A DNA stretch of 63,187 nucleotides, from NCBI RefSeq assembly GCF_012985275.1, contig NZ_JABEKY010000003.1, one strand, 5' to 3'. Positions 5,214-31,590 of this stretch are shown piece by piece. The translations under genes and the position numbers were made by a program. The notes beneath the pieces are model-generated. The model searched no databases and was not told the origin of the DNA. It was given only the letters and a program-made list of their open reading frames with translations. This stretch comes from Corallococcus exiguus. Its GTDB lineage: Bacteria > Myxococcota > Myxococcia > Myxococcales > Myxococcaceae. Position 1 is the stretch's first letter, and each line of letters begins with the position of its first letter.

Positions 5214-5234
5214 CCTGTCCGATTGTCGGACAAG
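5214..5234. repeat. degenerate copy of the 21-bp palindromic repeat family (CCTGTCCGAtTGTCGGACAaG), REP-like, between convergent gene ends
   Basis: TGTCCGA-TTG-TCGGACA inverted repeat. The flanking sequence (gctggcggccacctccggg...) resembles the flanks of the three copies at 24650-24856. Confidence 0.5.
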
Positions 5235-12800: not shown

Positions 12801-13138
12801 TCCTCCAGCTTCTGCACCAGCCGAGTGGCCAGCTTCACGCGCGTGTCCACCCAGATGCCCACGTCGCGCTGGCGCTCGGAGGCGAGCCTGCGGCGCGCGG
12901 CGCGCACCAGGTCCTGGAGCGTCACGGGCACCGTGGGCACCGGCGGCAGGCGGGAGATGCGCACGTCCAGCGCCCTGAGCACCGCGGTGTCCAGGTCCAG
13001 CTTCGCGCGCGTGCCGGCCAGGTTCTCCAGCGTCGCGGCCTTCGCGTCGGGCGCGTCCGGCGTGGCGGAGAGGGAGACTTCGGGCAGCGCGGTGCGCTGG
13101 AGGGCGACACGGCCACTGAGGGCGAAGGGGTCGGGCAT
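12797..13138 (-). CDS. small hypothetical protein (113 aa), possibly a fibre assembly factor
   Basis: Internal ATG (MPDPFALSG...) with GAGGA 8 nt upstream, 31 nt after the giant gene stop. The region upstream of this ATG in the ORF is Arg-rich and overlaps the giant gene. Confidence 0.4.
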   Translation of the reverse strand: MPDPFALSGRVALQRTALPEVSLSATPDAPDAKAATLENLAGTRAKLDLDTAVLRALDVRISRLPPVPTVPVTLQDLVRAARRRLASERQRDVGIWVDTRVKLATRLVQKLEE

Positions 13139-13169
13139 GGGGGTGTCCTCGCGAAAGGGACTTCCAGCG

Positions 13170-19100: not shown

Positions 19101-20777
19101 GTCCGCCGCGCGCACTCGCACGGTGAAGGTCCAGTATTCGGTCGCGCGGCATTCCGCGTTGCCGAAGGCCAGGGTGATGCCGTCGTCGAAGCGATAGCGC
19201 ACGTTGGGCACCAGCAGGTCGCCGCCGTCCCACCGGCGCACCACCGCGCCCTGCTCCGGACTGAAGGCCCGGCCCAGCGTGCCTCCCACGGGCAGCGGCA
19301 CGGGGTCCGTGGTGAGCACTGCGCTCGCGTCCGCCAGCTCCAGCTTGCCAGTGTCCGCCTGGACGCCTCGCAGCAGTCGCAGCACTGGCAGCGACGGGCC
19401 TTCCGGCTGGAGCCGGGTGACCCGGTCCTCGATGACGATGAGGTCGCCCGCGCGTAGCTTCGCGGCGCTCGCGGGGGAGACCTGGAGCGTCATCGCATCC
19501 GCCGCTGCGGGCGCGGTCAGCGGGAGCACCGTGGAGCCGTTGTCTCGCGACCACAGCACCACCGGCTGCGCGCCGCCCCGGAAGAACTCCACGCGGAAGT
19601 GGAGGTTGTCGGAGCCCGTGTAGCCCTCTCCCGTGGAGGCGTTCTCCGTGGACAGGCAGCGGTCTCGGCAGGGATCCAGCGGCTCGGGTGGGAAGCGGTC
19701 TGGCAGCGCGCCCTTCGGGATGTTGGTGGTGAGGCGTGCGTCGCTGGTGGGCGTGGGCAGGACCTCCGCATCGGTGTCAGCCAGTCCCTGGAGCGCGCGC
19801 ACCTGGGTGACGAGCCGCAGGCGCACGGTGGTGTCCTGTCCGTCCAGCGCGGGCTCCTCCAGGAACGCGTCGTCGTACTGGGTGGTGGTCTGCTCCCAGC
19901 AGTCGAGGAAGAAGAAGTGGTGCCGCGAGCCGTCCGTGGGCAGCTCCGCCAGCGGATCCGCCTCCGGTAGATCCGGCTGCACGGAGTAGCGCAGATCCTG
20001 CTCCAGGAAGATGCGCACGCCGTCGAGCAGCATGCGGCCCGCGCCCGGCAGCGTCCCGTCACCACCTCTTATAATGATATCGGCCCCCAGCGCCGCGTCC
20101 TCCACTCGCAGCGCGGCCACCCAGGTGCGGGCCACGGGCGGCAGGCCCAGCACGCCCCAGGAGCTCAGCTTCGTCGGGTCCACGCTCGCGAACGCGGCGA
20201 CGGGGAAGCGCACGTCGTTCCATCCCGTGGGCCGCTGCCCCAGACCGGCGGAGAGGACCGCTTCGTTCCCGTCCGTGTCCGCGACGGCCACGCGCAGGTC
20301 GATGAACTCATCGTCGGTGAGCGGTCGTTCGAAGCGCAGGCCGATGACGAGCGCGGAGGCGGTGAAGGTGGTGTCGTCCGAGCGCGGCACGGCCGTGACG
20401 TCCAACGGCGCGGGCAGCGTGCGGCGCAGCGCGATGTGGCCCCGGCTGCGCACCACGAACGGGAGCGTCTCCGTGTCGTAGCGGTCCAGGCGCAGCTCGC
20501 GCGGGATGATGCGCTCGTCGTCCGCGGGCAGTCCCTGCCCCGTCCAGCCGAGCACATTGCGGATGGGATCCACCAGGTACGTGTCGACGATTCGGAAGCC
20601 GTCGTCGGGCGAGCCCTCGGCGACGTCGGCGGAGCGGCGGCGCGAGTCCACGGTGCGCAGCCGCACCTCCTCGTTCCAGTCGGCGTCGAGGCTCATGCGC
20701 CCCATCTGCTGATAGACGCCGGAGAATCGCCGGGCTTCGTCGAAGCGGGACCTGGAGGTGTACGCTTTCACGGTCAT
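13170..20777 (-). CDS. giant (2535 aa) tail-fibre/tailspike-like protein with long right-handed beta-helix (pectate-lyase-fold) repeat region
   Basis: ATGA overlap with the gpI-like gene. The central ~1000 aa contain repeated NxxxG/GNxIxG motifs (VEVRGNRIQGFQVGILV, GNEIRNAVSDGLF, VVDNRIEGDGEST, VRIRGNVVRALGDSAV) typical of parallel beta-helix repeats. Single uninterrupted frame. Confidence 0.8.
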   Translation of the reverse strand: MTVKAYTSRSRFDEARRFSGVYQQMGRMSLDADWNEEVRLRTVDSRRRSADVAEGSPDDGFRIVDTYLVDPIRNVLGWTGQGLPADDERIIPRELRLDRYDTETLPFVVRSRGHIALRRTLPAPLDVTAVPRSDDTTFTASALVIGLRFERPLTDDEFIDLRVAVADTDGNEAVLSAGLGQRPTGWNDVRFPVAAFASVDPTKLSSWGVLGLPPVARTWVAALRVEDAALGADIIIRGGDGTLPGAGRMLLDGVRIFLEQDLRYSVQPDLPEADPLAELPTDGSRHHFFFLDCWEQTTTQYDDAFLEEPALDGQDTTVRLRLVTQVRALQGLADTDAEVLPTPTSDARLTTNIPKGALPDRFPPEPLDPCRDRCLSTENASTGEGYTGSDNLHFRVEFFRGGAQPVVLWSRDNGSTVLPLTAPAAADAMTLQVSPASAAKLRAGDLIVIEDRVTRLQPEGPSLPVLRLLRGVQADTGKLELADASAVLTTDPVPLPVGGTLGRAFSPEQGAVVRRWDGGDLLVPNVRYRFDDGITLAFGNAECRATEYWTFTVRVRAADGAARGEVEQLTDAPVQGPVHHCVPLARVTGGETRIFEDLRPRYLPLAQVRDRLVELSERVIGPGVFTVVVGDGVRSFGDVDQDLLEGITGDEALQAAVDRMGGQGGSIFVRAGRYKLEHPVLLRNLSSVHLLGDGEATELRTQGSGGAFFVDRCGLDGDVRIEDLKLVEAPFEDVVIGGGLQPVVKAVKTSVAMSNGQRFVPLVEVDDDRVLEEDDVKHPSAEADFVDVVVDRIKAIVPGQGRAAGSVVATLVQLRKLQRQHPGQPLEDVPEAKPLLDALAVLPHGVVTLADSSGVTLRRCLIQANQAGSEATGVLVTGTCARIVIDENRVGAATGIAVAPYAPYLAERFLASFPRAGLFVDALAITNNRLQPLGDATTGIHVADGRLAGVEVRGNRIQGFQVGILVQDLAEGGLAGPVDRVVVAENQILGSAAVGIQVAGDGVDVVGNEIRNAVSDGLFQVGIQLAGRALRVRESWISLPAVPAASVLGVVAGIVVGDGLDDGASNGRPASDVEVVDNRIEGDGESTPGFGILLGGPQPVFDVRIRGNVVRALGDSAVRTWGTGGAVGRLRVEDNRFEQVALADVPSQEDNTLALSRLDPGLEAVLSADAKSRPRPLVEALLANATTRVRAPLDAALRWLERLTLRGAVVLAGVDEAQVRGNRLLQVGRTEAYGAPGLPDAEVRAAGIAVVSGSSITVEGNEVDGVHAPVTTTQPPPVTGPVKLPPITVVLQQLSVTSATVRPERADVHSAVVGLYAIVLQYTGANVDGRQKLGRGLYGPLDTLLVELEDLGTVPDSILSALENDVADLRAAQSFNDHTQTAHAVRSSLSRASSFTAPDPVSQEAWDMVAQFDLATVSGKDAVATTADRIKGAFDSLVQGLPSDTKEILLKALARVQGGPGDLTAIVTLAGALSQVAQLREAQAQRARQPVIGQAVGPKKTIIGTFAQAALQQLPLQPGTRGAKANTDVLVQLRLSKDALTDQLQQLHPALASQVEADYRDVERTGGQMQPVVDRMRATLKQVLDFTTGVLPSSDVTPEDGARVAAQGLTATIGLYATNLDRQAAGLVSESDDTVEKQLRSFGTAVGQLGELVSGDAELSALSLQAHQAVLDAIAQPQKRMEQVAIARSLLDRIRVQTLEVLPMPLPPVPVKAEPLERWVSALGALVLAVRGMAPGPVLSGSLQLYLSQYDRVLDIAGIQGRLRTLALQRVSDAITALTSGNGGTPARQALHLLVDEPATTAAEAVAKSSAVTAELDAAAVLLRAVEQALDPAEDDASRVARLQEYLRQRSDKVSASLVAVVTGMQALDAILDMLRKSLEQLARGEAPDPGDLVDPVFDTFPLPADGLFVSGVQGRVRLADNTVRDTVTGITALGAAGHLLTEAPTDPGSLLDVDGNRLEGCAVSGLRLRPDLSVTVVSDNHLFACAGLPTAGEPGMGQAVASFVGSGELVVKGNVFLESGNTLPQAVLHEVAIDWRGETVVRGNTVRHAGGGGGGAGVLVVTDTLPPDLVTKLSRVPFLATDPVPKPSTDGRTVPGNSSPSSIATLASVPRVEDLVQLGSLKQKFATGPVLNRALAVTAADFAPTLSASAAASRYLTATTALVQPALVDFLVKPIPILPKPVVKEKRGVQVEGNDITARGPALLLLGNGGAVISAAVSGNELRSEGGVGAVYLRRADSTVFSGNRCQCLDAVNVVVLRVEKAPVTFTGNVVLGAETVTPPPPVVRPQWLMPSDRLTLQIPVGGGSTLGVPLDQELLLGGLQRRRDVASDAFSTLLAELVFQPTPLPPQARAEVPAKGVLDNATMQDVRSKLPATMDVSMAARTLYGIAVTKDDSPTSALRDLVDRVAMHADNPEDVQGQVRSVLTAADGDPKKALQLVDKSVLGIDSAASTVKESILNVSVLHEVLADSFYTGGTTGPIPVQDAGIRPLPPEPLPDPYAHSVIILGGSRVAAVGNATTSGVHVQEADAVVELNP

Positions 20778-23700
20778 GATCGGCTCATCCGAACGAGGTC
20801 GTCCTGGCTGCGGTCGGCGTGGAAGGGCGTGATGCCAATGGGCATGCTGTCGTCGGTGCGCGCGGAGAGTTCGCGCTCATGGTCGGAGCGCTCGTCGTGG
20901 GCACCGGGGACTCCGCCGCGCTCGGAGGCGTGGAGCGCTTCGGGGCCGTTGTTGTCGCCCAGGACGAGGTAGCCCGGGTCCGTCTGGCGGTTCGACTGGA
21001 AGGACACGGTGTGCACCCGCGACTGGTGCGACACCGGAGGCTGGCCGCCGCGTGCGAGGAGGCTGTAGCGCAGCCAGCCCAGGTCCGGCCGGTCCGTGCG
21101 CACCTCGCCCGCGAACGCGCAGGAGGAAGCCTCCAGCACGCCCGCTTCCGTGGCCCCGAGCACCGTGCAGTGCCGCAGTCGCACGGTCGCGCCCGCCGCT
21201 CGGATGGCGACGGCGTCGCGGTCTCCGGCGTCGAAGGTGCAGCCCGCGGCGATGAGGTGCACCCAGGGCGGCAGTTCGATGATGCCCACCATGCATCCGT
21301 AGAGGCGTAGCTCCACGTCCGCGGGAGGCAGCGAACGCCGCGCGCTGATGTCCTGGTGCCCACCGCCCGGCATCCACAGGCCCACCTGTCCGGGCGCGCC
21401 CAGGTTGCACCAGCGCAGGTCCGCCTGCCCCAGAGCGAGCACCAGCTCCAGCCGTCCCGCGAGCCATAGGCCCGCGAGCCACACGCGCGTGGCCGCACTG
21501 CCTCCGAAGCCCGGGTAGAACGCCAACGAGAGGCCGTGCTCGTCCGCGCCGATGCAGGGCGTAGCACCCGTGTCCGCGGCGAAGAGGGACAGCCCGTTGT
21601 CCAGGCCCTGTGACAGGCGCTCCGGAGCCAGCCGCGGCGAACCAATGAGGCCCAGCACCGGAGATGTTCCGGACGGACTTCCTTCCGCGACGTTCACGAT
21701 GTCCTGCGGTGACTGGCCTCCAGTCGCCAGCACCGAGGACGTGCCGGTTGCGACGATGGGGCGCGCCTGTCCTCCAGTCGCCAGCACTGGAGGCTCTCCG
21801 GCTTGGAGTCCATCCGCGACGGTGGCGACAATGGGCCGCTCCTGGCCTCCGGCCGCCAGCACTCCGCCCGCTCGCTCCGGAGAGATCCATGCGGTGACAG
21901 GAAGGCCGGTGCCGGAACGGTCGCCAGGACGGTCCGGCGGATCAATGAACGGGAAGTCCGGCTCCGCCCACGCGGTGGGCGGACGGCGGTTCGGCGGAAG
22001 CAGCCCCGCTCCCAATGAGGCGCCCCGCCCTACCCGCGCGGAGATAGTGACGCGGCCCACGGGCGCGTCGTCCTGGAGCACGACGCGGCCCAGGCGTGGA
22101 TCCACCGCGACGATGCCGGTGGCGATGCTCGGAGCGAGCGTCGTCCACGGGCCCAGGCTTCGCTGGCGCAGTTGGAACGGGTGGCGACTCAGCCGTCCGG
22201 GCACCGAATAGCGCCGCGCACCGCCGGCCACGGAAGCATCCCGCGAGTGGTACGCACCACCGGGCCGGGAATCGAGCGGGAGCGGCTGGCCCTCGCGAGG
22301 TTCGATGAACGCGGCGCCGTCGTTGGCGACGTTGAAACGCAGGAGTTCATCCGGGAGCAGAGCCAACTCTGGCAGGAAGGCCAGGTAGCCGCGACCGCCC
22401 AATGAGAAGACGACCTCCGACGCGGGCAGCGGCGCCGGATCCGTGAGGAGCACGCGCCCATCGACGTACAGCGCTTCGCCCGGAACCGGCGGGTTCGTGC
22501 CCGAGGCCTCCAGCGGTCCGGCGACCCAGGCATCCTCGCCTGCCTTCAGCGTCATCCATTGAGGGCGCGTCGTGTCCGCCCAGACGAGCGCCTCCACGCC
22601 GTCGGCGGTGGTGGTTGCCACGAGCGTACCGGGCAGGTTCGCGGTGATGGGCAGTGGAGCCAGGGGGCGCCAGACGGGGCTCGCGGAGGCCGGGTCACAC
22701 AGCATCACCGGCACGGCCAGTTCTCCCGTCACGGCCTCGCCGCCCAGGAGCATCAGTCCTTGCGCCGTGCTCAGCAGCGTCGCGGCCTTGCGCTCCTGGC
22801 GGTTGCGCACCGCATGGGGCCGCCACGGTCCGCCCGTGACCGGCAGCGACCAGAGGTCTCCAGTAGGCGCACCGCCCAGGTCACCGCCGAAGACGAAGAG
22901 CCGGCCGCCGCGCACGCACAGGCTGGGAGCCAGTCGCGCCGAGGGCTGCCGAGGGCTCGCGGTGTCCAACCGCGTCCCCGTCGGAGTCACGGTGTCCAGG
23001 CCCGTCACCGACCACACGCCCAGCTTCCCCGTGCCGTCCGGTGCCACCAGCAACAGTGAGTCACCAGCGATGGCCAGGGACATGCCTGGACCGTCTGGAG
23101 GCAACGCGCCGATGAGCTCCGCCACCTGCCAGGGCGCGCCGTCAGCGCTCGCGTCGAAGCGGGCAAGGCGCAGGCTGCCGTCCGCGAGGTGTTGCTCGAT
23201 GCGCGCGACCCACGGCGCACCGGCCAGGTCCACGCGGATGGCGTTGCTGCGAGGAGGCCCCTGGCGCAGACCCACGGTGAGGGTGCGCCACGTGCCGTCC
23301 GCGTCGCGCAGTCGCGGCTCACCGCTCACCCGTTCAACGAGCAACGCCGCCGTGGTGCCGCCCAGGAGCTGGTTCGCTTCCGGCGTAACGGTGACGGCGT
23401 TCAGTGCGTCCGACACCAGTTCAGTGGACAGGAGCACCGTGTCCGAGTTCTCACGCGCGGCCAGCAGCGTCAGTCGCCAGGTGTCTCCAGGCGAAGGCCT
23501 GCCCCTGTCCGCGAAGCGCAGCGTGGGGGCGGGCCCCAAGGGCGCGGTGGGCAGGGGGCCACGCAGAAGCGGCAGGGCTTCCGGACCCACCAGCGGAATG
23601 CCGTCGACGGAGACGGTGATGGCATCCGCGCGTTCAGCGACGGCGGCGTCCTCGGCCAGCGAGGTAGGGGTGAGCAGCATCGCCGCCGTGCGTCCCGTGA

Positions 23701-24544
23701 CGAGCGACGGAGGCGCGGGCTCATGGCGAGCGGAGAGGCCTCCAGTGAGGTCCGCGCGCTCCAGGGGTTTGAGCCACACCAGGGGGCCATCGCGGTCCAG
23801 TGGATCCACGCGAAAGCCCCGGTAGCCGTTGGGCAGCGTGAGCACGGTGGCCGGGGTGACTTCCTCCAACTCCACGGGCGTCAGGCGCGCGGTTCGGATG
23901 AGGGCAACATCCGGACGTGCCCAGCCCAGCAGGTCCAGCGTGCGCGGCGTCGCGGCGACACGGCCCGCATCCGCGCTCCCCAGCCGGCGCAAGGCCTGGT
24001 CCAGCGTCTCCCCGGGAGCGATGCCAATGAAGGGGCCACGCTCCGGGACACCATCGCGGGGACGCTCGATGCCAGGCGAGCGGCGGGTGAGCGGATCCGC
24101 GAGGCCGATCGGATCCCACATCACCGCGCTGCGGCCGCGCCAGGGCAGCAGGTCGTTGAGGTCCTGGGTCTCCAGCAACGAACGGAAGGACTCATCCACC
24201 TCCGCGTCCCAGAGGCTGGTGACGGAGAGCACCTCCTCCAGCGACGCGAGCGTGCCTTTCCGTCTTCGCCACGCCACCGCGCGAGCCACCACTCCGCGCT
24301 GCACGCGAGGGTCATCGGTGATCAGCCGTGCGCCCATCAACTCCGCGAGCAACGGCAGCGCCTGCGGACCCGCACGCTCCACGAAGTGATCATCCCAGAG
24401 CTGATCCACCGCGCGCGCGAACGCATCCAGCTCCATGCCCAGCACGGCGAGCAGCTTGAGGAGCGGCTGATCCGCGAGCGTGGAGTCCCGCGCCGTGTAG
24501 AGACCCGGGAGGAGTTGGAGCAGCCGCTGAGAAGGAGGGCTCAT
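20774..24544 (-). CDS. baseplate protein, P2 gpI-like (Tail_P2_I N-terminal domain) with Kelch-like repeats and an internal tandem-repeat segment (1256 aa)
   Basis: N-terminus LLPGLYTARDSTLADQPLLKLLAVLGMELDAFA...DPRVQRGVVARAVAWRRRKGTLASLEEVL matches the gpI family, including the RRKGT motif. AAGGAGGG lies 4 nt upstream of the ATG. Several LxVxGG/GGxxxxxDLW Kelch-like motifs. Confidence 0.75.
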   Translation of the reverse strand: MSPPSQRLLQLLPGLYTARDSTLADQPLLKLLAVLGMELDAFARAVDQLWDDHFVERAGPQALPLLAELMGARLITDDPRVQRGVVARAVAWRRRKGTLASLEEVLSVTSLWDAEVDESFRSLLETQDLNDLLPWRGRSAVMWDPIGLADPLTRRSPGIERPRDGVPERGPFIGIAPGETLDQALRRLGSADAGRVAATPRTLDLLGWARPDVALIRTARLTPVELEEVTPATVLTLPNGYRGFRVDPLDRDGPLVWLKPLERADLTGGLSARHEPAPPSLVTGRTAAMLLTPTSLAEDAAVAERADAITVSVDGIPLVGPEALPLLRGPLPTAPLGPAPTLRFADRGRPSPGDTWRLTLLAARENSDTVLLSTELVSDALNAVTVTPEANQLLGGTTAALLVERVSGEPRLRDADGTWRTLTVGLRQGPPRSNAIRVDLAGAPWVARIEQHLADGSLRLARFDASADGAPWQVAELIGALPPDGPGMSLAIAGDSLLLVAPDGTGKLGVWSVTGLDTVTPTGTRLDTASPRQPSARLAPSLCVRGGRLFVFGGDLGGAPTGDLWSLPVTGGPWRPHAVRNRQERKAATLLSTAQGLMLLGGEAVTGELAVPVMLCDPASASPVWRPLAPLPITANLPGTLVATTTADGVEALVWADTTRPQWMTLKAGEDAWVAGPLEASGTNPPVPGEALYVDGRVLLTDPAPLPASEVVFSLGGRGYLAFLPELALLPDELLRFNVANDGAAFIEPREGQPLPLDSRPGGAYHSRDASVAGGARRYSVPGRLSRHPFQLRQRSLGPWTTLAPSIATGIVAVDPRLGRVVLQDDAPVGRVTISARVGRGASLGAGLLPPNRRPPTAWAEPDFPFIDPPDRPGDRSGTGLPVTAWISPERAGGVLAAGGQERPIVATVADGLQAGEPPVLATGGQARPIVATGTSSVLATGGQSPQDIVNVAEGSPSGTSPVLGLIGSPRLAPERLSQGLDNGLSLFAADTGATPCIGADEHGLSLAFYPGFGGSAATRVWLAGLWLAGRLELVLALGQADLRWCNLGAPGQVGLWMPGGGHQDISARRSLPPADVELRLYGCMVGIIELPPWVHLIAAGCTFDAGDRDAVAIRAAGATVRLRHCTVLGATEAGVLEASSCAFAGEVRTDRPDLGWLRYSLLARGGQPPVSHQSRVHTVSFQSNRQTDPGYLVLGDNNGPEALHASERGGVPGAHDERSDHERELSARTDDSMPIGITPFHADRSQDDLVRMSRS
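21714..21870. repeat. imperfect tandem DNA repeat (3 copies, unit 54-75 bp) inside the gpI-like gene encoding LA(A/T)GGQxxPIVAT peptide repeats
   Basis: tggcctccagtcgccagcac at ~21714, tgtcctccagtcgccagcac at ~21768 and tggcctccggccgccagcac at ~21843. Confidence 0.5.
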
Positions 24545-24649
24545 GAGGCCTGCCCCTCCACGACTGGGAGCGTCGCGGCCACGCCGTAACGCGCCGCACC
24601 AAGCGCCCGAACATCAATGCCGTGAACCTCCCGCCCGACACGGTCCCAA

Positions 24650-24856
24650 CCTGTCCGACTGTCGGACAGGCTCCCGCTGCTCGGCTGGCGCGGAGGTCCA
24701 CCGCCCCAGTCCATCAAACCTGTCCGACTGTCGGACAGGTTTTCACTGCTCGGCTGGCCCGGAGGTCCCCAGCCCCGGTCCTCCAATCCTGTCCGACTGT
24801 CGGACAGGTTCTTGCGGTGCGCCGCAGCCGGGAGTCCCCGCAGGGTTCCCTCTTTC
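24650..24856. repeat. three tandem 69-bp repeats, each beginning with the 21-bp perfect palindrome CCTGTCCGACTGTCGGACAGG, in the 382-bp intergenic region inside the contractile-tail operon
   Basis: Palindromes at 24650-24670, 24719-24739 and 24788-24808, so the period is exactly 69 bp. The sequences following each palindrome are similar (ctgctcggctggcgcggaggtcc / ctgctcggctggcccggaggtcc). The motif is not part of any convincing ORF. Confidence 0.6.
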
Positions 24857-24926
24857 TCAGCCACGGAGACTGACCCCATGTCCGCGGGCCTGGGGCTGGG
24901 GCCGGTCGGGCGCGTCGAGGCGGGGC

Positions 24927-27452
24927 TCATAGGTCCTGGGCCTCCTCGTAGGTGAGCGCGACGCCATCGCTTTCTCCGGACGGCGGGGCCCAGGCGAGCA
25001 GTTCGCCGGGCGCGGTGACGATGCGCTCGAAGAGGGCTGGCGGCGTGCCTTCGCGATGCAGCCGCTGCACCACCACCGAACGCAGGCCCGTGATCTCCGC
25101 GAGCGCGCCGTATAGGTCCGACAGCTGAAGATCCTGTCCCAGCTCCACGCGATCCGGATCCAGCAGTCCAGGCTCACGCTCCGGGTCGCGGTCCACGCCC
25201 AGCCGCAGACGCGTCTCTTGAAGCACCGCGACCGGATCCGCGCCCTTCACCACGCGCAGCAGCACCCGCAGCCGCACTTCCACACGCTGCCGGTTGATCA
25301 GGTTCAGCTCCACCTTCGGCGCCACCCGTGCCGCCAGGTGCGCGTGGAGAGCTTCCAGATCGGCTGCGCCCAGGGCTACTCCTTCCGGCCCAGCCACCAC
25401 CACCTTCAGCGAACGGCGGCGCACGCCATCCCGGAACACGTTCGCGCGGTGCACGCCGTCGAATACCAACGTCAGCGCCTGCACGTCCGAGAGCGACACT
25501 GCGCGGTCCATCGCGCCCACCGTGGCTGGCCCTCGCACGCGCGCCAGCGCCGGTGCCTCCGGATCCGTTCCTCCGGCCAGCGGCAACGGGTTGAACGTCT
25601 TCTCCACGCAGGGATGCGGGCTCGCCATTGCCAGCAGCCGCAGCGCGGCCCGGTTGCCGCCCGTCCCTCTGCCCACCCGGTAGCGGACCCGCACCTCCGC
25701 GCCCAGGGGCAACGCCGAACCATGGTCCCCTTCCCCGAAGCGCAGCCGCGCGGCCCCGGCCGGCAGCGACTCGACCGCGAAGGCCAGCTCATCCGGCGCG
25801 GCGTCCAACAACGAATCCACCTGCATCCACGCGCGGCCTCCCACCGTCAGGGACACCTCCGGCCGGCGGCCTCCCGCGCGGCTCGGGTCGCGCAACCAGG
25901 TCACCGGCCCATGCAGCAGCGACACCGTGCGCAGATCCAGCGCGGGCACCGCGATCTCCTCCACCGTGGAGCCCTCGCTGACGAGCGTGTTGTTTCCCAG
26001 CAACACCACGCCGTCCAACGAGTACGCGCGCGACAGCGGTGGCTGGAACGTCACCTGCGTCATCGGCGTGCGCTGACCGGGCGGAACCTCCGTGCGGACG
26101 CGCAGCACGCGCAGTGCTTCGCGGTAGATCCGCTCCGTGCCCTTCGCTCCTCCGGGGCCCAGACGCTCCACGTCCTCGGCCAGCACGAACCAGTCTCCTG
26201 GCCGCACCGGCGGCTCCTGTGAGGTGAGCCCGGAGGCATCCGTCAGCGGCAGCAGGTAGAGGGAGTCCGTTCCGGATGCCGCCACGCCCAACGGCCGGGC
26301 CACTCCCGCTTCCGCGCCGAAGGCCTGGTCCGCCCGGTTCAGCGCTTCACTGCCCTTGAGGATGACGAGTTGATCCCGTGCCTCCTGGATGAGGCTGTTC
26401 ACGAAGGCATCCAGGAACGTGACCATCCTGTCCAACCGGACCGCGTGCACGGTCGGGTCCTCGTCCGCGCACGGGGCCAGCGCCTCCTCCAGCGCGGCCA
26501 GTGCGTCCGCCTGCCGCTTCTGCAAGTTGCGGAGCTGGCGGGCGAGGATCTCCTGCGACTCGGACAACGCGCCCACGGGACGGCCGGGGGGAGGCACCGC
26601 CTGCGCCACGGCCTTCTGGGCCTCGCACAGTTGTTCGCAGAGCGCGTCCAGCGTGCTCTTGCACGCCGCATCCCCGCCCAGGTCCAACGTCTTCATCAAC
26701 AACGCCAGCTTGCGAGCATCCTGCTTCGCGCGAGCCACCTGCCGTTCCTCCAGCGGACCGTGGCGCTGCACCTCGATGCGTTCCTGAAGCCCCGCGACCA
26801 CCGAGCCAGTCCCGAAGATGCCGCCCGTGGGAGCCGGAGCCCCAGGCTCACCCGCCTCGCCGGAAGGCGCACCGGTCCCACCACCCGTTCCACCCGTCCC
26901 CGTGCCTCCACCTGTTCCCGTTCCCCCGCCCGTCTCCGTCCCAGTTCCAGTTCCTGTCCCCGCTCCAACCAGAGGGGGCAGGAACGCGCGCAGTTCGTTG
27001 AGCTCCGGCAACAGGCGCAGCGGCGCGAGCGTCTCGAACACAGCGGCGGTCTCTTCCCCCTCCGCCGCCGAATTCACCGCCGTTCCCGGCGACAGCGTGC
27101 CGCGCACGTTCGCCTTGCAGCGGAAGTGCTGGAGCCCCACCGCCGCGGTGCCCGGACTCGGCCGATAACCGATGTGCCCGAGCAGCTTGGAGACGGAGTC
27201 CTCCAGCCGCGCCGTGGCGAGGAAGCTCTCCTCCGCCCACGCCTGCTGATACGTCCACAGCACGTGCAGCGCGAGCGCCACGCTGTCCAGCAGCCCCCGC
27301 CCCAGGTCCACCGAGGATGGCGCCGCGTACGCGAGCGGATTCCACGTGGGCGCTTCGTCCAGCCGGGTGAAGACGATGCGCGCCGACTCGCCCAGCCGGG
27401 TGCGGAGCTGCTCATGCGTCAGCGCCTGGTGCGTGGAGGGAACGCGGCTCAT
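24927..27452 (-). CDS. baseplate J-like (gp6-like) protein, second paralog (841 aa) with Gly/Thr-rich linker
   Basis: ATGA overlap with the upstream J1 stop. The C-terminus NPLPLAGGTDPEAP...RAVSLSDVQALTL...LQLSDLYGALAEITGLRSVVVQRL matches the Baseplate_J C-terminal pattern. Linker GTGTGTGTETGGGTGTGGGTGTGGTGGGTG. Confidence 0.7.
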   Translation of the reverse strand: MSRVPSTHQALTHEQLRTRLGESARIVFTRLDEAPTWNPLAYAAPSSVDLGRGLLDSVALALHVLWTYQQAWAEESFLATARLEDSVSKLLGHIGYRPSPGTAAVGLQHFRCKANVRGTLSPGTAVNSAAEGEETAAVFETLAPLRLLPELNELRAFLPPLVGAGTGTGTGTETGGGTGTGGGTGTGGTGGGTGAPSGEAGEPGAPAPTGGIFGTGSVVAGLQERIEVQRHGPLEERQVARAKQDARKLALLMKTLDLGGDAACKSTLDALCEQLCEAQKAVAQAVPPPGRPVGALSESQEILARQLRNLQKRQADALAALEEALAPCADEDPTVHAVRLDRMVTFLDAFVNSLIQEARDQLVILKGSEALNRADQAFGAEAGVARPLGVAASGTDSLYLLPLTDASGLTSQEPPVRPGDWFVLAEDVERLGPGGAKGTERIYREALRVLRVRTEVPPGQRTPMTQVTFQPPLSRAYSLDGVVLLGNNTLVSEGSTVEEIAVPALDLRTVSLLHGPVTWLRDPSRAGGRRPEVSLTVGGRAWMQVDSLLDAAPDELAFAVESLPAGAARLRFGEGDHGSALPLGAEVRVRYRVGRGTGGNRAALRLLAMASPHPCVEKTFNPLPLAGGTDPEAPALARVRGPATVGAMDRAVSLSDVQALTLVFDGVHRANVFRDGVRRRSLKVVVAGPEGVALGAADLEALHAHLAARVAPKVELNLINRQRVEVRLRVLLRVVKGADPVAVLQETRLRLGVDRDPEREPGLLDPDRVELGQDLQLSDLYGALAEITGLRSVVVQRLHREGTPPALFERIVTAPGELLAWAPPSGESDGVALTYEEAQDL

Positions 27453-30400
27453 CGCAGCCCTCCGCACACCTGCACGGTGAGGACGCCTTCCGAACCCGGC
27501 CAGTAACCACCCCGAGCGGTGGCCACCTCGTCGGGTCCAATGGGAATGACGCCCGCCTCCAGCCGCTCCTGCGATTGGGGCTCCAGCCGGCGAAAGCGCT
27601 TCACCCGCACCGCCGTTACGCCCGGGACGCGCAGCACCGCCTGGTACAGGTCCGCGAGCTGCACGTCGCCGTTCAGGCCAGAGCGGTCCGGATCCAACAG
27701 GCCGCCGTCCCCCGCGATGGCGCCCACCACCGCGCCGCGCACCTGGTCGGCCTGCGCATGCGGCGCGGCATCCACCTCCAGGTCCAAGTCGAGCGGCACC
27801 CATTTTGGCGGCAGCGCTTCCACGTCCACGCCCAGCAGGCGGATCTCCTCCAGGCGACTGCGCACCCCCGCCCATCGGCGCAGCAGCTCGTCGCGGTCGA
27901 GCGTGTCCTCGTCGCGCAGCAACACCGTCACGCGGATGACCGTGCGCAGGTCCCGGTCCACGGCGCGCGCCGAAGCCCCCGCCACTTCCGGCATCTGCTG
28001 GAGCATCCGCACGTAGTCGTCGACCGTGACGGCGGACAGCGGCTGCGACACGCCAGCCGGTGCGCGGTAGCGAATGGAGTCGAGCGACTCCGCGTCGCGT
28101 CCCTCCACCGCGGGCAGCGGATTATCCACGCGCACCAACGCGCGCACGTCGTCCATCGATTGGGCCAGCAGCTCACCCGCGGACGCGGAGCGCTGCGGAT
28201 CCAACGGCACCTGGAGCAGCCGCGTGAGCACGCCCTCCCCCACGTTGGCCGCTGTCCCCAGCCCTACGCGCAGCGACAGTCCCAGCGTCGTCTCCCGGGG
28301 CGGAAGCACGGCGCCGTTGACGCCGTCGCCCCAGCGCAGGCTGGCGCCGCCCGTGGGGGTCGCGCGCAGCACGAACACCTCATCCCCCGGCCCCTGCACG
28401 GACAGGTCGTCCACCAGCGTCCAGGGGTCGTCCTCCACGCTCACCTGGAGCTGGGGCGTCCCGCGCCGCGACGTCTCCTCCGGCAGTGGATACCCAAAGG
28501 CCTGGACGCTGACCGGATGGAACGGCAGGGCGAACTCGCGCTCCTCGCTGCCGTCCACGACCGGGGACAGCAACGCGCGCCACTGCGCGAGGCCGCGCGC
28601 GAAGGGCTCAGCGGAGTCCGCCTCGGAGCCCTCTGGAAGCGGAGTCACCGGCAGCCCGTGATGCGCGGGCACCACGTTGCCCAGCACCGTCGCGCGAGGC
28701 CCAGGTGCGGGGTCTCCCGGCGCCAGGAACACCTCCGGCGCGAACCTGCGGGGATCCCACCCGACAAAGGTCGTATCGGTGGCGAGCGCCACGGAGGTCA
28801 CTCGCACCACGTGCCCGCTCTCGCCGCGGCCCCGGTAGAGGATCAGCCAACGGCCGGGCTCCAGCTCCGGGTACAGACCCGCGAGCGTGGCGCCCGTGTC
28901 CCCCAACTGCACGGACTCCGCGAGCGTCACGATCTCCAGCCGGGGGAAGTACGACAGGGGCGACTCAGTGACGAACACCAGCGAGTGCTCGTCCGTGGAG
29001 ACATTCGCCACCAGCGTTTCAGCGGGAATCTCCAGCACGCCGCCACCGGTGAGGAACTCCAGCGCGGTGGTGCCGGGCGGAAGCACCGACAGGTTCAGTT
29101 CATCCAACCGCGCCTTCACCAGCGCCGCGAGCGCCTCCGGATCCAGCCGGAACCGCAGCATCACCGTGGCGGAGAGCCCAGGATCCGGCACGTAATCCAG
29201 TCCGCGCGCATGGTCCTCCACGGAGCGCCGCAGCCGAGCATCCTCCAGGAAGCCCTCCACCACCGCGCGCTCCTGCTGGTACGCCAGCGAGTCGAGCTGC
29301 GCGGCAACGGCCTCCAGCAACATGGTCGTGAAGTCCGCGAGCCCCCGGTCCTCCCACGGCGCCATCACCGTGCGAGCCCGCTCCAGCATCACCGCCAGCA
29401 GCGACTGCGCGTCGCGAGCCTGGTAGTCCACCAGCGCGCCAGTCGCCGGCCGCTCCGGGGCCGCGAGCCACGGACGCGGCTGAGGATCCCGCACGTCACA
29501 TCCCGGCACCACATCCGGAGCCCACGCGCCAATGAATGGCGCCGGGTCGCGAGGACCATCGCCCGGAACCGGCACCGCCGCGCGCGAGATGGCCGCATCC
29601 GGGACCAGCCGCAGGTCCACGGTCTCCGGGGGCGGCAGGCCGCCACTGAGCAACACTGGGGGAATCTCCGGAGTTCCCGGCGTCCGGTATGGCAGGGGCA
29701 CCACCTCCAGGAACGGCGGGGCCGCGCCCTGAGCGAACAGTGCGAGAGAGGCGGACAGCTCCGCGTCCGGCTCCAGCACGAACGGCGCGCCCACGATGGC
29801 CGTGAAGAGCGAGTCGTAGGCGCGAATCTCCCCGGGCCCCAGCCGCAGCCCATGCGCATGCCGGTGCCAGGTGAGCTGCGCGAGCAACAGCTGTTCCGCC
29901 TGGAGCCAGCCCGCGTGCACCGACGTCCAGGCCTCGGTGCGTCGCACCAGCGCCGTGCGCAGTCCGCCCTCCAGTTGCAACGCGGTGCCGGTGATGACGA
30001 AGAGGGAGCAGTCCTCGACGGCGATCTCCCCCGGCGTGCCCACGTCCAGCACCGGCTCCAGGCCACCCAGCGGCGCGGCCACGTGCAGTCCCACGACGTC
30101 CGCATCGGTGGGAAACGCAGGCAGCGTCAGCGGCCCCACGACCGAAGCAGACAGTGCATCCAACGCGGCGATGAGCCAGTCCGACCAGGACGCCTCGGGC
30201 TGCGCGGACACCGGAACAGGCGCCGCTGACACACGGCTCACCTCCACGTCACGAACCACCACCGGCTCCAGCGAAGGTCCCCCCAGCACCCGCATGCCCG
30301 TGGCGCGCGTTCCGGCGGAGACATCCTCCACCTGGCCCATGGCCACTTCGATGCTCCGCCCGCCCAGCGCGAGCACGCCCATCGGGAACCCGCCCTGCAC

Positions 30401-31216
30401 CCGCTGCACGGTGAAGCCACGCACCTGGAGCGCGCCCGCCGAGGCCACCAAGAGCCCGATGCTCCACTGCACCCCGAACGCATCCACCTCGCTCACGGAC
30501 ACGTCCACCATGGACAGGCCGTCACCCTCCTCCCGAGCCACCAGCACCCGCGCGCCGGTCGCGTTCGGCCCGGAGACCTGCGACACCGTGAGCCCGGACA
30601 GGTCCGCGCGGGTGAAGCCCGCCAGCTCCAGGCCCACGCCCATCTCCATGCCCATGACGTTGCGCACCGCCACGTCCGCCCACTGCGAACGCTGACAGAC
30701 CGCCCGCACTCCAAAGGCATCCCCCGCCGTGGCCCGCACGCCGTCCACGGACAGGCCCGTGACGCGGGCCTCCGTCGCCAGCAACCGGAGCCCCGTCGCC
30801 ACTTCGCCCTTCGCCTGCGTCACCGTGAGCGAGTCGATGACCACCGTGCCGTCCGGCGTCTCCACGCTCACCGCCGCGCAATCCCCTGACGCCGTGGCGC
30901 TCACCGTGACGTCCGACACCTCCACCCGCGTCCCCAGGAGGACCAGCCCTGCGTCCAACGCCACCACCGTCACACCCGACAGTCCGGTGACGATCCCCGT
31001 GACTTCGAGCGTCCCGCCGTCGAGCCGCAGCGTCACGCCCGGACCGCCCGTGAGCCGCAGGGCGTGCACGGGCGTGCCGATGACGAAGTTCGAGGTGAGC
31101 ACGCCCTCGCCCACGGGCAGCACCCACTCCACCTCGCCCGGCGGCGTGGTCTCCAACGCGGCCTGCGCCTCCGCGAGCGACGCCTCCAGCGGCAATGTCA
31201 GGACCCGCGCGCTCAC
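27449..31216 (-). CDS. baseplate J-like (gp6-like) protein, first paralog (1255 aa)
   Basis: GTG start overlapping the gp25-like stop as GTGA, with GGAGG 7 nt upstream. The C-terminus GRDAESLDSIRYRAPAGVSQPLSAVTVDDY...VQLADLYQAVLRVPGVTAVRV is the Baseplate_J signature. The N-terminal 161 codons of the longer ORF (31217..31699, overlapping the gp25-like gene) are Gly/Arg-rich and were excluded. Confidence 0.75.
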   Translation of the reverse strand: MSARVLTLPLEASLAEAQAALETTPPGEVEWVLPVGEGVLTSNFVIGTPVHALRLTGGPGVTLRLDGGTLEVTGIVTGLSGVTVVALDAGLVLLGTRVEVSDVTVSATASGDCAAVSVETPDGTVVIDSLTVTQAKGEVATGLRLLATEARVTGLSVDGVRATAGDAFGVRAVCQRSQWADVAVRNVMGMEMGVGLELAGFTRADLSGLTVSQVSGPNATGARVLVAREEGDGLSMVDVSVSEVDAFGVQWSIGLLVASAGALQVRGFTVQRVQGGFPMGVLALGGRSIEVAMGQVEDVSAGTRATGMRVLGGPSLEPVVVRDVEVSRVSAAPVPVSAQPEASWSDWLIAALDALSASVVGPLTLPAFPTDADVVGLHVAAPLGGLEPVLDVGTPGEIAVEDCSLFVITGTALQLEGGLRTALVRRTEAWTSVHAGWLQAEQLLLAQLTWHRHAHGLRLGPGEIRAYDSLFTAIVGAPFVLEPDAELSASLALFAQGAAPPFLEVVPLPYRTPGTPEIPPVLLSGGLPPPETVDLRLVPDAAISRAAVPVPGDGPRDPAPFIGAWAPDVVPGCDVRDPQPRPWLAAPERPATGALVDYQARDAQSLLAVMLERARTVMAPWEDRGLADFTTMLLEAVAAQLDSLAYQQERAVVEGFLEDARLRRSVEDHARGLDYVPDPGLSATVMLRFRLDPEALAALVKARLDELNLSVLPPGTTALEFLTGGGVLEIPAETLVANVSTDEHSLVFVTESPLSYFPRLEIVTLAESVQLGDTGATLAGLYPELEPGRWLILYRGRGESGHVVRVTSVALATDTTFVGWDPRRFAPEVFLAPGDPAPGPRATVLGNVVPAHHGLPVTPLPEGSEADSAEPFARGLAQWRALLSPVVDGSEEREFALPFHPVSVQAFGYPLPEETSRRGTPQLQVSVEDDPWTLVDDLSVQGPGDEVFVLRATPTGGASLRWGDGVNGAVLPPRETTLGLSLRVGLGTAANVGEGVLTRLLQVPLDPQRSASAGELLAQSMDDVRALVRVDNPLPAVEGRDAESLDSIRYRAPAGVSQPLSAVTVDDYVRMLQQMPEVAGASARAVDRDLRTVIRVTVLLRDEDTLDRDELLRRWAGVRSRLEEIRLLGVDVEALPPKWVPLDLDLEVDAAPHAQADQVRGAVVGAIAGDGGLLDPDRSGLNGDVQLADLYQAVLRVPGVTAVRVKRFRRLEPQSQERLEAGVIPIGPDEVATARGGYWPGSEGVLTVQVCGGLR

Positions 31217-31590
31217 GGCGGCGCCTCCAGGTCCCGGCGGAACAGCTCCGCGTGTTCCTCGCCCGTCGCCAGCAGCGTGTAGAGGATGTCCACGTAGAGC
31301 GTCGCGTCCTCGGCGCTCACCTTCACCGCGTCCAGGCGCACCTGGTCGCGCATGAACTCCTGCACGTTGAGGCGGATGATGTACTCGGTCGTGGCGGCGG
31401 CCTCCGGGCTCGCGGCGCCGAACACCATCCGCTGCACGCCGCACCCGAAGCGCGGCCGGTTCACCCGCTCCCCGGGCAGCGTGAAGAGCAACTGCTCCAA
31501 CTGCTGACGGATGACCTGCGAGGGCCCCACCGTGCGCGGCGTGCCCAGGTCTCCCAACTGGAAGGGGAAGTGCAGGCCGCGCCCCATCAC
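31213..31590 (-). CDS. baseplate wedge protein, gp25/gpW-like (GPW_gp25 family)
   Basis: 125 aa. MMGRGLHFPFQLGD...VIRQQLEQLLFTLPGERVNRPRFGCGVQRMVFGAASPE...YIIRLNVQEF matches the gp25-like lysozyme-fold family. ATGA overlap with the gpD-like gene. Confidence 0.85.
   Translation of the reverse strand: MMGRGLHFPFQLGDLGTPRTVGPSQVIRQQLEQLLFTLPGERVNRPRFGCGVQRMVFGAASPEAAATTEYIIRLNVQEFMRDQVRLDAVKVSAEDATLYVDILYTLLATGEEHAELFRRDLEAPP

Follow-up and report, generated by a model that had tools for sequence, protein, structure and literature searches.

A contractile-injection-system operon in Corallococcus exiguus has three identical palindromes where its second baseplate-J paralog gives way to the gpI-like gene, and the question that they raise is whether they serve this operon as a regulatory device or came to it as a repeat. 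A sequence-only reading had offered both possibilities, a REP/MITE-like element family or an array of binding sites for a dimeric regulator, placed so that it could terminate, attenuate or re-initiate transcription before the gpI, fibre, spike and payload genes. Here we describe the array in the window (the whole 63,187-nt stretch of DNA that was analysed), the repeat family, the history of the junction and the candidates for a function.

The array and its surroundings

The exact 21-mer CCTGTCCGACTGTCGGACAGG was found three times in the window at a spacing of 69 bp, at the places claimed for it (starts 24650, 24719 and 24788; Table 1). It is a 10+1+10 palindrome with T as its central base on the plus strand, and shuffled sequences (n=100) averaged 0.01 matches, with none of the 100 reaching 8. 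Tandem Repeats Finder reported a period of 69 with 2.4 copies at 87% identity (24648-24811) and, as an alternative call, the same period with 2.8 copies at 78% identity (24646-24839). The three cores agree at 63 of 63 positions and the two full 48-nt spacers at 37 of 48 (77%). These spacers fit a family-wide consensus, TTTCCGCTGCYCGGMTGGAGCGG..CCCC..GGTYCTCCMAA, and the array is bounded by two recurrent end-pieces, tail A and tail B, which belong respectively to arm cluster 2 (35 members, consensus TTCGTGCGGTGCGCCGC..GGGTTCTCACCTTCTCATCC) and arm cluster 4 (19 members, consensus TTGGGACCGC..CGGGCGGGAGGTG). Read in the operon direction, the centre of core 3 is A in the window and T in the other C. 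exiguus strain. A degenerate fourth copy with similar flanks had been placed at 5214; the copy itself is there, with two mismatches and a predicted hairpin of -17.5 kcal/mol on the plus strand and -21.7 on the minus strand, but its flanks are only weakly similar to the array units (63-72% over 60 nt).

Two statements about the gap had to be corrected. Within the operon it is not the one long stretch between genes, as a GC3-based ORF map displays at least two others without a convincing ORF, 12835-13169 (335 nt) and 35412-35974 (563 nt). Nor is its plus-strand ORF (24543..24932) the sole one, for the gap holds two ORFs of 129 codons each, and that on the minus strand (24541..24930), running in the operon direction, is the relevant one. 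The length of the second J paralog agrees with the NCBI-derived gene call at locus L121 (841 residues), and the next gene upstream (27449-31699) has a Baseplate_J match. Overlaps of the form ATGA are found elsewhere in the operon, between the two J paralogs and between gpI and the gene that follows it.

Table 1 Features of the array, its junction and the solitary copy in the window
Feature	Position	Strand	Evidence and remarks
Palindrome core 1, CCTGTCCGACTGTCGGACAGG	24650..24670		Exact match; last of three in operon direction; sense RNA 10-bp stem, 3-nt loop, -21.2 kcal/mol
Palindrome core 2	24719..24739		Exact match; AAA/TTT extend the core to a 27-bp perfect palindrome; sense RNA 12-bp stem, -19.2 kcal/mol
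Palindrome core 3	24788..24808		Exact match; first of three in operon direction; sense RNA -17.5 kcal/mol
Two complete 69-bp units (core + 48-nt spacer; 23 codons each)	24648..24785		Tandem Repeats Finder
Tail A arm, plus strand TTCTTGCGGTGCGCCGC..GGGTTCCCTCTTTCTCAGCC	24809..24862		Recurrent array end-piece of the repeat family
Tail B arm, minus strand TTGGGACCGTGTCGGGCGGGAGGTTCACGG	24620..24649		Second recurrent array end-piece
Solitary degenerate family copy CCTGTCCGATTGTCGGACAAG	5214..5234		2 mismatches; between FGE-sulfatase-like gene and DNA past the operon
FGE-sulfatase-like gene adjoining the 5214 copy	3588-5102	+	Pfam FGE-sulfatase
Bridge ORF, 129 codons, made of the insert	24541..24930	-	ATG in ATGA with J-paralog stop; TGA in ATGA with gpI start
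Upstream gene, second baseplate-J-like paralog, 841 aa	24927..27452	-	Translation; stop within ATGA 24927-24930
Downstream gene, gpI-like, 1256 aa	20774..24544	-	Pfam: N-terminal Tail_P2_I, Kelch repeats; 100% identical to a Corallococcus exiguus protein
Relic copy of gpI 5' end (ATGAGCCCCGCCTCGACGCGCC.., MSPASTRP..), now bridge ORF start	24886..24930	-	Aligns ~45 nt past ATGA to the true gpI start of empty-site locus L129
Relic copy of J-paralog 3' end, ..GVAATLPVVEGQAS vs true ..GVALTYEEAQDL	24541..24584	-	Alignment, z ~2-3 vs shuffles; in-frame peptide similarity

A dispersed palindromic repeat family

A scan of the genome collection for the 21-mer matched at least 120 stretches, nearly all of them from Corallococcus, and the roughly 1.1 Mb of fetched DNA held 296 sites with up to four mismatches against three in the reversed-sequence control. 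C. exercitus SDU142 alone has at least 99 sites, usually spaced 69-73 bp apart, so that the motif is abundant beyond this operon and the proposal of a REP/MITE-like family is supported. Arrays reach about 15 units. The 21-mer is flanked by AA(A)/TT(T); the conserved part of the family, AA(A)CCTGTCCGAC-W-GTCGGACAGGTT(T), contains a stop codon in none of the six frames, and the spacer consensus of the window is common to 66 of 83 distinct 66-76-bp units drawn from many loci and species. Units within arrays are organised head to tail with one oriented spacer consensus, rather than as inverted doublets, while single copies have one central palindrome and variable arms. Most sites or arrays (89 of 112) lie between called ORFs, and in-frame copies occur in NRPS ORFs (PVRLSDRF) and in the 3' tail of regulator genes (GNLSDCRTGW). 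No bias towards gene 3' ends was seen (23 divergent and 25 convergent contexts, besides tandem and intragenic sites), nor any bias of orientation, these counts resting on crude GC3-based ORF calls. Results demonstrate that a member of a palindromic repeat family dispersed in Corallococcus and related myxobacteria was amplified locally in tandem to give the three 69-bp units. The family appears to be undescribed in myxobacteria, and full-text literature searches for this repeat element returned no report.

Repeats that are co-transcribed within operons, have hairpin potential and may be sites for DNA-binding proteins are known as Correia/NEMIS elements in Neisseria and as ERIC/IRU, and in these respects the present family resembles them. 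Correia elements can carry IHF sites. Unlike both, the family yielded neither short terminal inverted repeats nor a short target-site duplication, and no sign of RNase III processing or promoter creation: the element is a long imperfect palindrome whose ends are inverted by construction, and at the sole site with a known empty state the flanking duplication comprises tens of nucleotides of gene junction (about 45-70 nt). At locus L088 a possible 13-bp direct repeat was noticed.

Entry into the J-paralog/gpI overlap and the bridge frame

Comparison with orthologous loci revealed both states of the junction. C. sicarius and C. sp. ZKHCc1 1396, as well as a distant metagenome locus, have an empty junction, with the J-paralog stop and the gpI start overlapping as ATGA; these species share the contractile-injection-system operon in a more distant version. 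Occupied junctions came only from genomes with a gpI that matches the window's at 89% identity or more, and the nine occupied loci contain 1-9 units each, with palindromes 53-207 bp apart across species and strains. A metagenome scan with the gpI N-terminus for further junctions gave 271 pattern hits, none of which was confirmed. Between the window and C. interemptor the flanking genes are 88-92% identical and the insert is unalignable except for its cores. The two C. exiguus strains have three and four units, one 69-bp unit apart and otherwise identical over about 460 nt, and loci L136 and L135, from two assemblies with the C. carmarthensis gpI protein in common, have eight and nine. These differences of whole 69-bp units support the earlier suggestion of an array prone to recombination, with slippage as the other possibility. 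Relics of both neighbouring genes remain at the ends of the insert, where the junction duplication is visible by local alignment and modestly significant (z ~2-3 vs shuffles); the J-paralog relic provides gpI with a GGAGG ribosome-binding site and its ATGA. These results establish that the repeat entered the 4-nt ATGA overlap of the second baseplate-J paralog and gpI in an ancestor shared by C. exiguus, C. coralloides, C. interemptor, C. carmarthensis and C. caeni, with the gene junction apparently copied to either side of the insert. They also establish that the array has since gained and lost units (now 1-9, with periods of 69 and 153 bp), forming a variable-number tandem repeat even within species.

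In each of the nine occupied loci the insert is open from the upstream to the downstream ATGA, giving a bridge ORF of 78-273 codons. The bridge sense frame has no stop in any of the nine, as against 1-6 stops in the other sense frames (two and three in the window), and no antisense frame is consistently open across them. ATG-to-ATG distances (386, 455, 491, 818, 572, 233, 461, 731 and 662) are all 2 mod 3. Shuffles give an open frame with a probability of 0.067 for the window's insert and 0.0023 for the 818-nt one. Since arrays of the family are intrinsically stop-poor (elsewhere, 1150 nt of L035 have no stop in three frames, and L041 has none in six), an open frame by itself says little, and it is mainly the mod-3 regularity that counts; this regularity has to be read with the shared ancestry of the nine loci and with the fact that many length differences, being whole units of 69 or 153 bp (23 or 51 codons), keep the frame by construction. 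Because the insert lengths are always 2 mod 3 and the frames open, we infer that the insert must stay translatable for translational coupling.

The bridge ORF is probably translated. The insert would have been kept only in forms with one sense frame open between the two ATGA motifs, and ribosomes finishing the J paralog would then translate a junk peptide of 78-273 aa before reaching gpI. Such translation would maintain the coupling employed along the whole operon and avoid polarity, and the hairpins, together with any protein binding, would be by-products at this locus. gpI has its own GGAGG and could initiate independently. As for a real protein-coding gene covering the region, what is present is an open frame built of the repeat, and the look of a conserved protein is absent: it begins with an in-frame relic of gpI and ends with one of the J paralog, and its composition in the window (GC1/2/3 = 0.70/0.64/0.75) is not gene-like.

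Survival of palindromic selfish repeats in translated sequence by keeping frame is known from Rickettsia palindromic elements (RPE; Ogata et al. 2000, summarised in PMC10969869). The repeat described here resembles them in its frame-keeping copies, within the bridge ORF, the regulator 3' tail (GNLSDCRTGW) and the NRPS ORFs (PVRLSDRF). An RPE-like tolerance within translated sequence is supported by the preserved reading frame, with a core free of stops in six frames and a bridge open at 9/9 loci with lengths of 2 mod 3. It differs from RPE in its unrelated sequence, its host (a 70% GC myxobacterium), the intergenic position of most copies, the long tandem arrays, and its location at this site between two genes and not inside one.

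Possible protein recognition of the core and the rival explanations

Variation in the core is one-sided, with CCGGTCC.. and ..GTCCGACAGG as common variants. At pair 3-19 we counted 55 single changes against four compensatory ones; the centre is A or T in 290 of 296 sites. Within arrays the core diverges by 7.6% and the spacer by 21.7%, a comparison biased by the fact that sites were found by core similarity. No compensatory covariation was detected in the core, and RNAalifold on 50 units gave no consensus pairs in the 48-nt spacer. The strict conservation of the core may thus reflect recognition by a protein, and the array is a plausible candidate binding site for a dimeric regulator.

The best candidate for such a binder, on positional evidence, may be an expanded family of FadR/GntR-type regulators. 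When ORFs within 800 bp of palindromes were clustered, only this family recurred, and wherever a pair of palindromes brackets a gene of 1-1.5 kb, the bracketed gene is always a FadR/GntR regulator. The assignment comes from Pfam (GntR, E=7.7e-14) and from FadR-like sequence over about 200 residues; the positions aligned with FadR R45, R49 and H65, which we take to be its DNA-contacting residues, are conserved in the family. A palindrome lies about 78 bp (in a few cases about 50-65 bp) upstream of the ATG in 22 of 22 copies from palindrome-selected loci and at the same position in both copies picked irrespective of the palindrome, and most of the sampled genes have a second palindrome in the 3' coding tail, at +940 to +1360. 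The resulting cassette measures about 1.35-1.5 kb and is present in at least 10 copies in one genome; 361 homologues were counted, and a single chromosome carries at least 16 distinct clusters. In one MAG, 14 palindrome loci have no FadR/GntR gene near them, nor is there a copy of the regulator gene within the window. The regulator gene could be mere cargo of a composite repeat.

If regulator dimers such as the FadR/GntR paralogs bound the three palindromes as a functional operator array, they might control or roadblock transcription of gpI, fibre, spike and payload genes. Such a role would suit a core far more conserved than its spacers, the non-compensatory variation and the identical palindrome at promoter-like distance upstream of 24/24 paralog genes. 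It would also suit a half-site that contains GTCCGAC, shared with the E. coli fadL operator AGCTGGTCCGACCTATA (the fadBA operator is ATCTGGTACGACCAGAT; PMC4259882). Both GTCCGAC and GTCGGAC lie inside the core and fit the GT-Nx-AC pattern of FadR/GntR operators, the palindrome is built on a GT-N3-AC core, and it stands upstream of regulators whose helix-turn-helix aligns with that of FadR. The half-sites, however, are 1 bp shorter than in FadR-type operators (CTGTC-N-GACAG vs CTGGT-N3-ACCAG), the 21-mer comprises two overlapping 11-bp dyads (CTGTCCGACAG and CTGTCGGACAG), and hundreds of copies with tandem arrays far exceed a normal regulon. Moreover, sister species with the same operon have zero sites, the number of sites and their spacing vary freely between species and strains over the ranges given above, the element turns up without preference in convergent, divergent, tandem and intragenic settings, and the window lacks a regulator gene copy. 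We therefore regard an operator array made for this operon as improbable. The same genomic pattern invites comparison with REP/BIME of enterobacteria and REPIN/RAYT of Pseudomonas (Bertels & Rainey 2011, PMC3116915), with which the family shares palindromes of 20-40 nt in hundreds of lineage-confined, mostly intergenic copies, clusters with conserved linkers, copy-number variation among strains and hairpin potential in mRNA. A classical system of this kind, spread by a single-copy RAYT (HUH/Y1) transposase elsewhere in the genome, would explain short, mostly extragenic, clustered palindromes that are vertically inherited within the genus. It is nevertheless decidedly improbable: only the FadR/GntR gene recurs beside palindromes and is bracketed by their pairs, and the arrays are direct tandem units of 69-73 bp in place of inverted doublets. 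The family further differs from the known systems in its perfect 21-27-bp palindrome at the unit centre and its lack of gene 3'-end bias. A tblastn search with E. coli RayT through the 1.11 Mb around the palindromes found no RAYT, its best hit (E=0.02, L075) being in a non-coding frame opposite an apparent real gene. More speculatively, the palindrome family and the multi-copy cassette may form a new self-propagating pair, in which REP-like repeats are matched with a GntR-type binder and not an HUH transposase, and in which translation-adapted units colonise coupled junctions and coding regions; as a whole, we consider this proposal unlikely.

A role in the operon RNA, with the hairpins acting in part as intrinsic terminators or attenuators, or stopping 3' exonucleases in the manner of REPs, and so setting the ratio of upstream to downstream products, would draw on the stability of each core hairpin (9-12 bp, -16 to -21 kcal/mol), on gap RNA that folds better than shuffles (z = -4.8) and on AAA/TTT flanks in the family consensus that resemble a bidirectional terminator. 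E. coli REPs, which stabilise upstream mRNA, offer a precedent. Against this, the terminator scan found no site at the palindromes, whose sense-strand tails are AUUGGAGG, UUUGAUGG and UUGGGACC, and the only terminator-like site in the gap is antisense (plus strand, 24830-24850), in tail A. The loop has only 3 nt; divergent contexts are as common as convergent ones, and the lack of gene-context or orientation bias in the family leads us to reject a terminator or 3'-UTR role. The hairpins also sit inside a frame apparently kept open, so ribosomes would melt them. We judge such a role highly unlikely, and the suggestion that the array was positioned to end, attenuate or restart transcription did not hold: the junction is empty in C. 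sicarius and C. sp. ZKHCc1 1396, copy number and spacing vary between species, no U-tracts follow the hairpins on the sense strand, the family shows no 3'-end bias, and the supposed gap is open in a sense frame and bordered on either side by an ATGA overlap at 9/9 loci. A sigma-70 scan of the gap found no promoter. Equally doubtful to us is a genuine repeat-protein gene (24541-24930; 23-residue repeats NLSDSRTG..) with a role in the injection system, which the open, start/stop-coupled frame at 9/9 occupied loci and a 78-aa gene annotated in one genome (L126) might suggest. It is missing from related species that have the same operon, its length ranges from 78 to 273 aa with conserved sequence limited to translated repeat and neighbour-gene relics, its composition is of low complexity and rich in Pro, Gly, Arg and Ser, and its GC3 is 0.71-0.81 where the neighbouring genes have 0.83-0.95.

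Three candidate identities were rejected. A Rho-independent terminator has the hairpin, but no U-tract at the palindromes passes the scan and there is no convergent excess. A small-RNA gene (hairpin plus T-run, plus strand) is unsupported by covariation, orientation or Rfam, which returned no match for the whole window at the gathering threshold and, when the gap was run in relaxed E-value mode, nothing beyond eukaryotic miRNA models below threshold that match the hairpins. A CRISPR array is rejected because the spacers are homologous to one another, being 77% identical and matching the family-wide consensus.

The array is therefore a REP/BIME-like repeat with unusual features and not an operon-specific terminator or operator, and at the J-paralog/gpI overlap it looks like a tolerated, frame-keeping insertion and not a purpose-built operon switch. 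Judging from sequence comparisons, we give a probability of about two in three (0.68) to the overall explanation that a dispersed repeat was inserted at the ATGA junction, was amplified and is held translatable for coupling, its core possibly being recognised by a protein. The array is usable as a variable-number marker for Corallococcus strain typing, and it is a warning for annotators, because gene calls cover the bridge region in some genomes and leave it blank in others. If this reading holds, the repeat population is tied to a lineage-specific burst of near-identical FadR/GntR regulators, a tie that might turn out to mark a new partnership of repeat and protein, or else a very large decoy regulon. 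A selfish repeat in the ATGA overlap of two baseplate genes would likewise be a natural experiment on translational coupling, and a testable case of selection for translatability and not for a protein.

The palindromic array and its operon

The 21-mer CCTGTCCGACTGTCGGACAGG, a 10+1+10 palindrome, has exact copies at window positions 24650, 24719 and 24788 and a two-mismatch copy at 5214, as the sequence-only reading had described; dinucleotide-preserving shuffles gave a mean of 0.01 chance matches. Tandem Repeats Finder assigned the array a period of 69 bp. Its three cores are identical, its two complete 48-nt spacers share 37 of 48 positions, and in operon direction it runs from tail A (tails being recurrent end-pieces of arrays) through three cores with two spacers between them to tail B. 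The window has a G+C content of about 70%, and its gpI-like protein matches a Corallococcus exiguus protein at 100% identity. All of the genes flanking the gap are minus-strand genes of a contractile-injection-system or phage-tail-like operon. ATGA stop/start overlaps between the two baseplate-J paralogs (J1/J2, 27449-27452) and between gpI and the next gene (20774-20777) indicate translational coupling through this part of the operon. The gap had been taken for the only long one in the operon, but the ORF map holds at least two more, of 335 nt (12835-13169) and 563 nt (35412-35974), with no convincing ORF in a GC3 analysis and no palindrome copy. Its sole ORF had been placed on the plus strand, whereas a 129-codon ORF is present on each strand.

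Operon genes and occupied J-paralog/gpI junctions (palindrome spacings in brackets)
Feature	Position or genome	Strand	Remark
Sheath		minus	operon gene
gp19-type tube and CIS_tube		minus	operon genes
GPD hub		minus	operon gene
Baseplate_J		minus	operon gene; precedes second J-like paralog
Second J-like paralog	24927-27452	minus	upstream of gap
Tail_P2_I/Kelch (gpI-like)	20774-24544	minus	downstream of gap
Beta-helix giant		minus	operon gene; after Tail_P2_I/Kelch
gp5/VgrG spike		minus	operon gene; after beta-helix giant
Junction, window	C. exiguus		3 palindromes (69, 69)
Junction, L121	second C. exiguus strain		4 palindromes (69 x 3)
Junction, L122	C. sp. AB011P		2 palindromes (140)
Junction, L123	C. 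coralloides DSM 2259		5 palindromes (153 x 3, 53)
Junction, L125	C. coralloides, second genome		3 palindromes (153, 68)
Junction, L111	C. interemptor		3 palindromes (153, 104)
Junction, L126	C. caeni		1-2 palindromes
Junction, L135	C. carmarthensis		9 units of 69 bp
Junction, L136	second assembly, same gpI protein as L135		8 units of 69 bp

A dispersed palindrome family

A scan of one genome per species with the query CTGTCCGAYTGTCGGACA matched at least 120 stretches, nearly all from Corallococcus species; the remaining listed matches were a few Archangium, Hyalangium, Vitiosangium and myxobacterial MAGs and some probable chance matches in other phyla. About 1.1 Mb of fetched DNA contained 296 sites with at most four mismatches against 3 in the reversed sequence, and C. 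exercitus SDU142 alone carries at least 99. The palindrome is thus a dispersed family, rightly recognized earlier as REP/MITE-like, and not a feature specific to the injection-system operon. Its invariant part is AA(A)CCTGTCCGAC-W-GTCGGACAGGTT(T), outside which a small number of arm types recur. Arrays are common and reach about 15 units, usually spaced 69-73 bp apart, and the window spacer consensus is common to 66 of 83 distinct units. Single-core versions of the tail A/core/tail B composite are found elsewhere (e.g. L024, L088). The L088 composite (3840-3990; tail B, core, tail A) apparently has the 13-bp direct repeat GAATCCCGnCAGG on both sides, which could be a target-site duplication. 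In an uncultured myxobacterium (MAG MFD05674) the core is always single and forms the middle of a hairpin about 70 nt long, whose shared arms read CCTCCCGGGCGCG..TTCAGAAA-core-TTTTTGAAAA..CGCGCCCGGGAGG (L007, L009, L014, L019, L028, L050, L090, L118 and others). Perfect 21-mers also lie in frame within very large NRPS ORFs (L089:3257-3277, L095:3851-3871, L098:7357-7377), translated PVRLSDRF or PVRQSDRF; in two of the three the 21-mer occupies the same position, just upstream of the LAYVIYTSGSTG adenylation motif.

Variation within the core is one-sided, with 55 single against 4 double changes at pair 3-19 and a similar pattern at pair 7-15, which looks like decay from a specific sequence rather than upkeep of a hairpin with arbitrary sequence. 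Within arrays cores diverge by 7.6% and spacers by 21.7%, a comparison biased by the detection of sites through their cores. No consensus secondary structure was found in the spacer, and Rfam searches returned nothing meaningful. In 290 of 296 sites (98%) the palindrome is centred on A or T, the two being about equally frequent. At window position 24798 the centre base, read in operon direction, is A where the second palindrome of L121 has T, the region being otherwise identical bar one 69-bp unit. This difference between two C. exiguus strains, together with the family-wide pattern, suggests that palindromes invert.

The array had also been proposed as a device placed to terminate, attenuate or re-initiate transcription in this operon. 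Its sense-strand hairpins are stable (-17 to -21 kcal/mol, 3-nt loop) and are followed by AUUGGAGG, UUUGAUGG and UUGGGACC, but a terminator scan made no call there and related junctions are empty, so the proposal finds no support. The gap has a single terminator-like site (24830-24850, GGGAGTCCCCGCAGGGTTCCC then TCTTTCTCAG), situated in the tail A arm and on the plus strand, antisense to the operon. Crude ORF calls placed 112 sites or arrays in convergent (25), divergent (23) and tandem (41) contexts, within ORFs (11) or in unclassifiable positions (12), and tail A composites had no orientation preference relative to neighbouring genes. These mixed contexts argue against a family-wide terminator or 3'-UTR role, which we rejected.

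An open frame across a variable insert

The insert is present at nine loci, and in each of these genomes gpI shares at least 89% identity with that of the window. In C. sicarius, C. sp. ZKHCc1 1396 and a distant metagenome locus the gap is absent and the J-paralog stop and gpI start overlap as ATGA. Insert content differs greatly among the occupied loci, even between C. exiguus strains (3 vs 4 units) and between L136 and L135 (8 vs 9), which bears out the earlier view that the repeats are prone to recombination. The gene junction is duplicated on both sides of the insert: to the left lie the true J-paralog end and a gpI-start relic (MSPASTRP.. vs MSPPSQRL..), and to the right a J-paralog-end relic (..GVAATLPVVEGQAS vs ..GVALTYEEAQDL) and the true ribosome-binding site and ATG. 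The distribution and content of the inserts fit a single insertion in an ancestor, with rapid turnover since then that extends to copy-number change inside a species. A third, internal relic (..GGGACCTCTGAGCCATGCCTCG..) lies about 130-190 nt before the gpI ATG in the C. coralloides-group inserts L122, L123 and L125, and indicates that the junction was duplicated more than once.

At all nine occupied loci the sense frame opens with the ATG in the upstream ATGA and meets no stop before the TGA in the downstream one, forming a bridge ORF of 78-273 codons, while each of the two other sense frames contains 1-6 stops and no antisense frame is consistently open; the nine loci share common ancestry. 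For the 818-nt insert only 0.23% of shuffles were open, a figure to be read against a palindrome family that is intrinsically poor in stop codons. An array at L035:619-1768 (13 units, 92-bp period) shows how stop-poor these repeats are, running for 1150 nt with all three plus-strand frames free of stops. The ATG-to-ATG distances (386, 455, 491, 818, 572, 233, 461, 731 and 662) are all 2 mod 3, a regularity to which 69- and 153-bp units contribute automatically. Insert structures nonetheless also differ by non-multiples of three (spacings 140, 104, 68 and 53), and the totals remain in register. Codon usage in the bridge ORF shows no gene-like bias, and apart from the two relics and the translated repeat nothing in its sequence is conserved. 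We infer that the frame is preserved for translation itself, which would maintain translational coupling and avoid polarity, and not for a peptide product.

A linked regulator family and related elements

The only gene recurring beside the palindromes encodes a FadR/GntR-type regulator (Pfam GntR, 7.7e-14), about 200 residues of which can be aligned with E. coli FadR. The gene is carried by 22 of 120 palindrome-selected loci, with at least 10 copies in C. exercitus SDU142. Every copy from these loci has a palindrome about 78 bp ahead of the ATG (about 50-65 bp in a few), and in most copies a second one, read in frame as GNLSDCRTGW, falls at +940 to +1360. Two copies picked regardless of the palindrome, C. 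exiguus P0171 and Pyxidicoccus P0177, show the same layout. The family comprises 361 matches, one chromosome carries at least 16 distinct 90% clusters of it, and its recognition helix hardly varies. GTCCGAC is found both in the palindrome half-site and in the E. coli fadL FadR site (PMC4259882). Layout, expansion and half-site likeness make these paralogs the best candidates, on positional evidence, for a core-recognising protein, and the palindrome a plausible predicted binding site at the level of the family. Alternatively, the regulator gene could be cargo bracketed by two repeats.

The regulator cassette measures about 1.35-1.5 kb, and Corallococcus genomes each contain many copies of it (L048:3564-4736, L091:2880-4038, L094:4563-5735 and about 19 other loci), with none in the window. 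Most copies share 83-91% nucleotide identity, and about 175 nt further upstream of the first palindrome are conserved between them. No regulator gene was seen near the MFD05674 core copies. The regulator ends in a long, disordered tail with a conserved GRWAAxLWRFIA motif (in P0060 and P0171, a hydrophobic ..GRWAAxLWRFIAxxLGxPAS after the linker), which may point to a GntR-type protein that is tethered or unusual in some other way.

We found no description of this element in the searchable literature. It resembles REP/BIME repeats in being lineage-specific, abundant, clustered and hairpin-forming, and Rickettsia RPEs (PMC10969869) in surviving within translated sequence. It differs from MITEs because its conserved part is central rather than terminal. 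Several defining features of REPIN/RAYT systems are not seen here: the arrays are not inverted doublets, no bias towards gene 3' ends is evident, and no RAYT-like gene was seen in about 1.1 Mb of DNA around palindromes. Beyond the original array, the most interesting results are the frame-preserving bridge between coupled genes and the link to an expanded FadR/GntR family.
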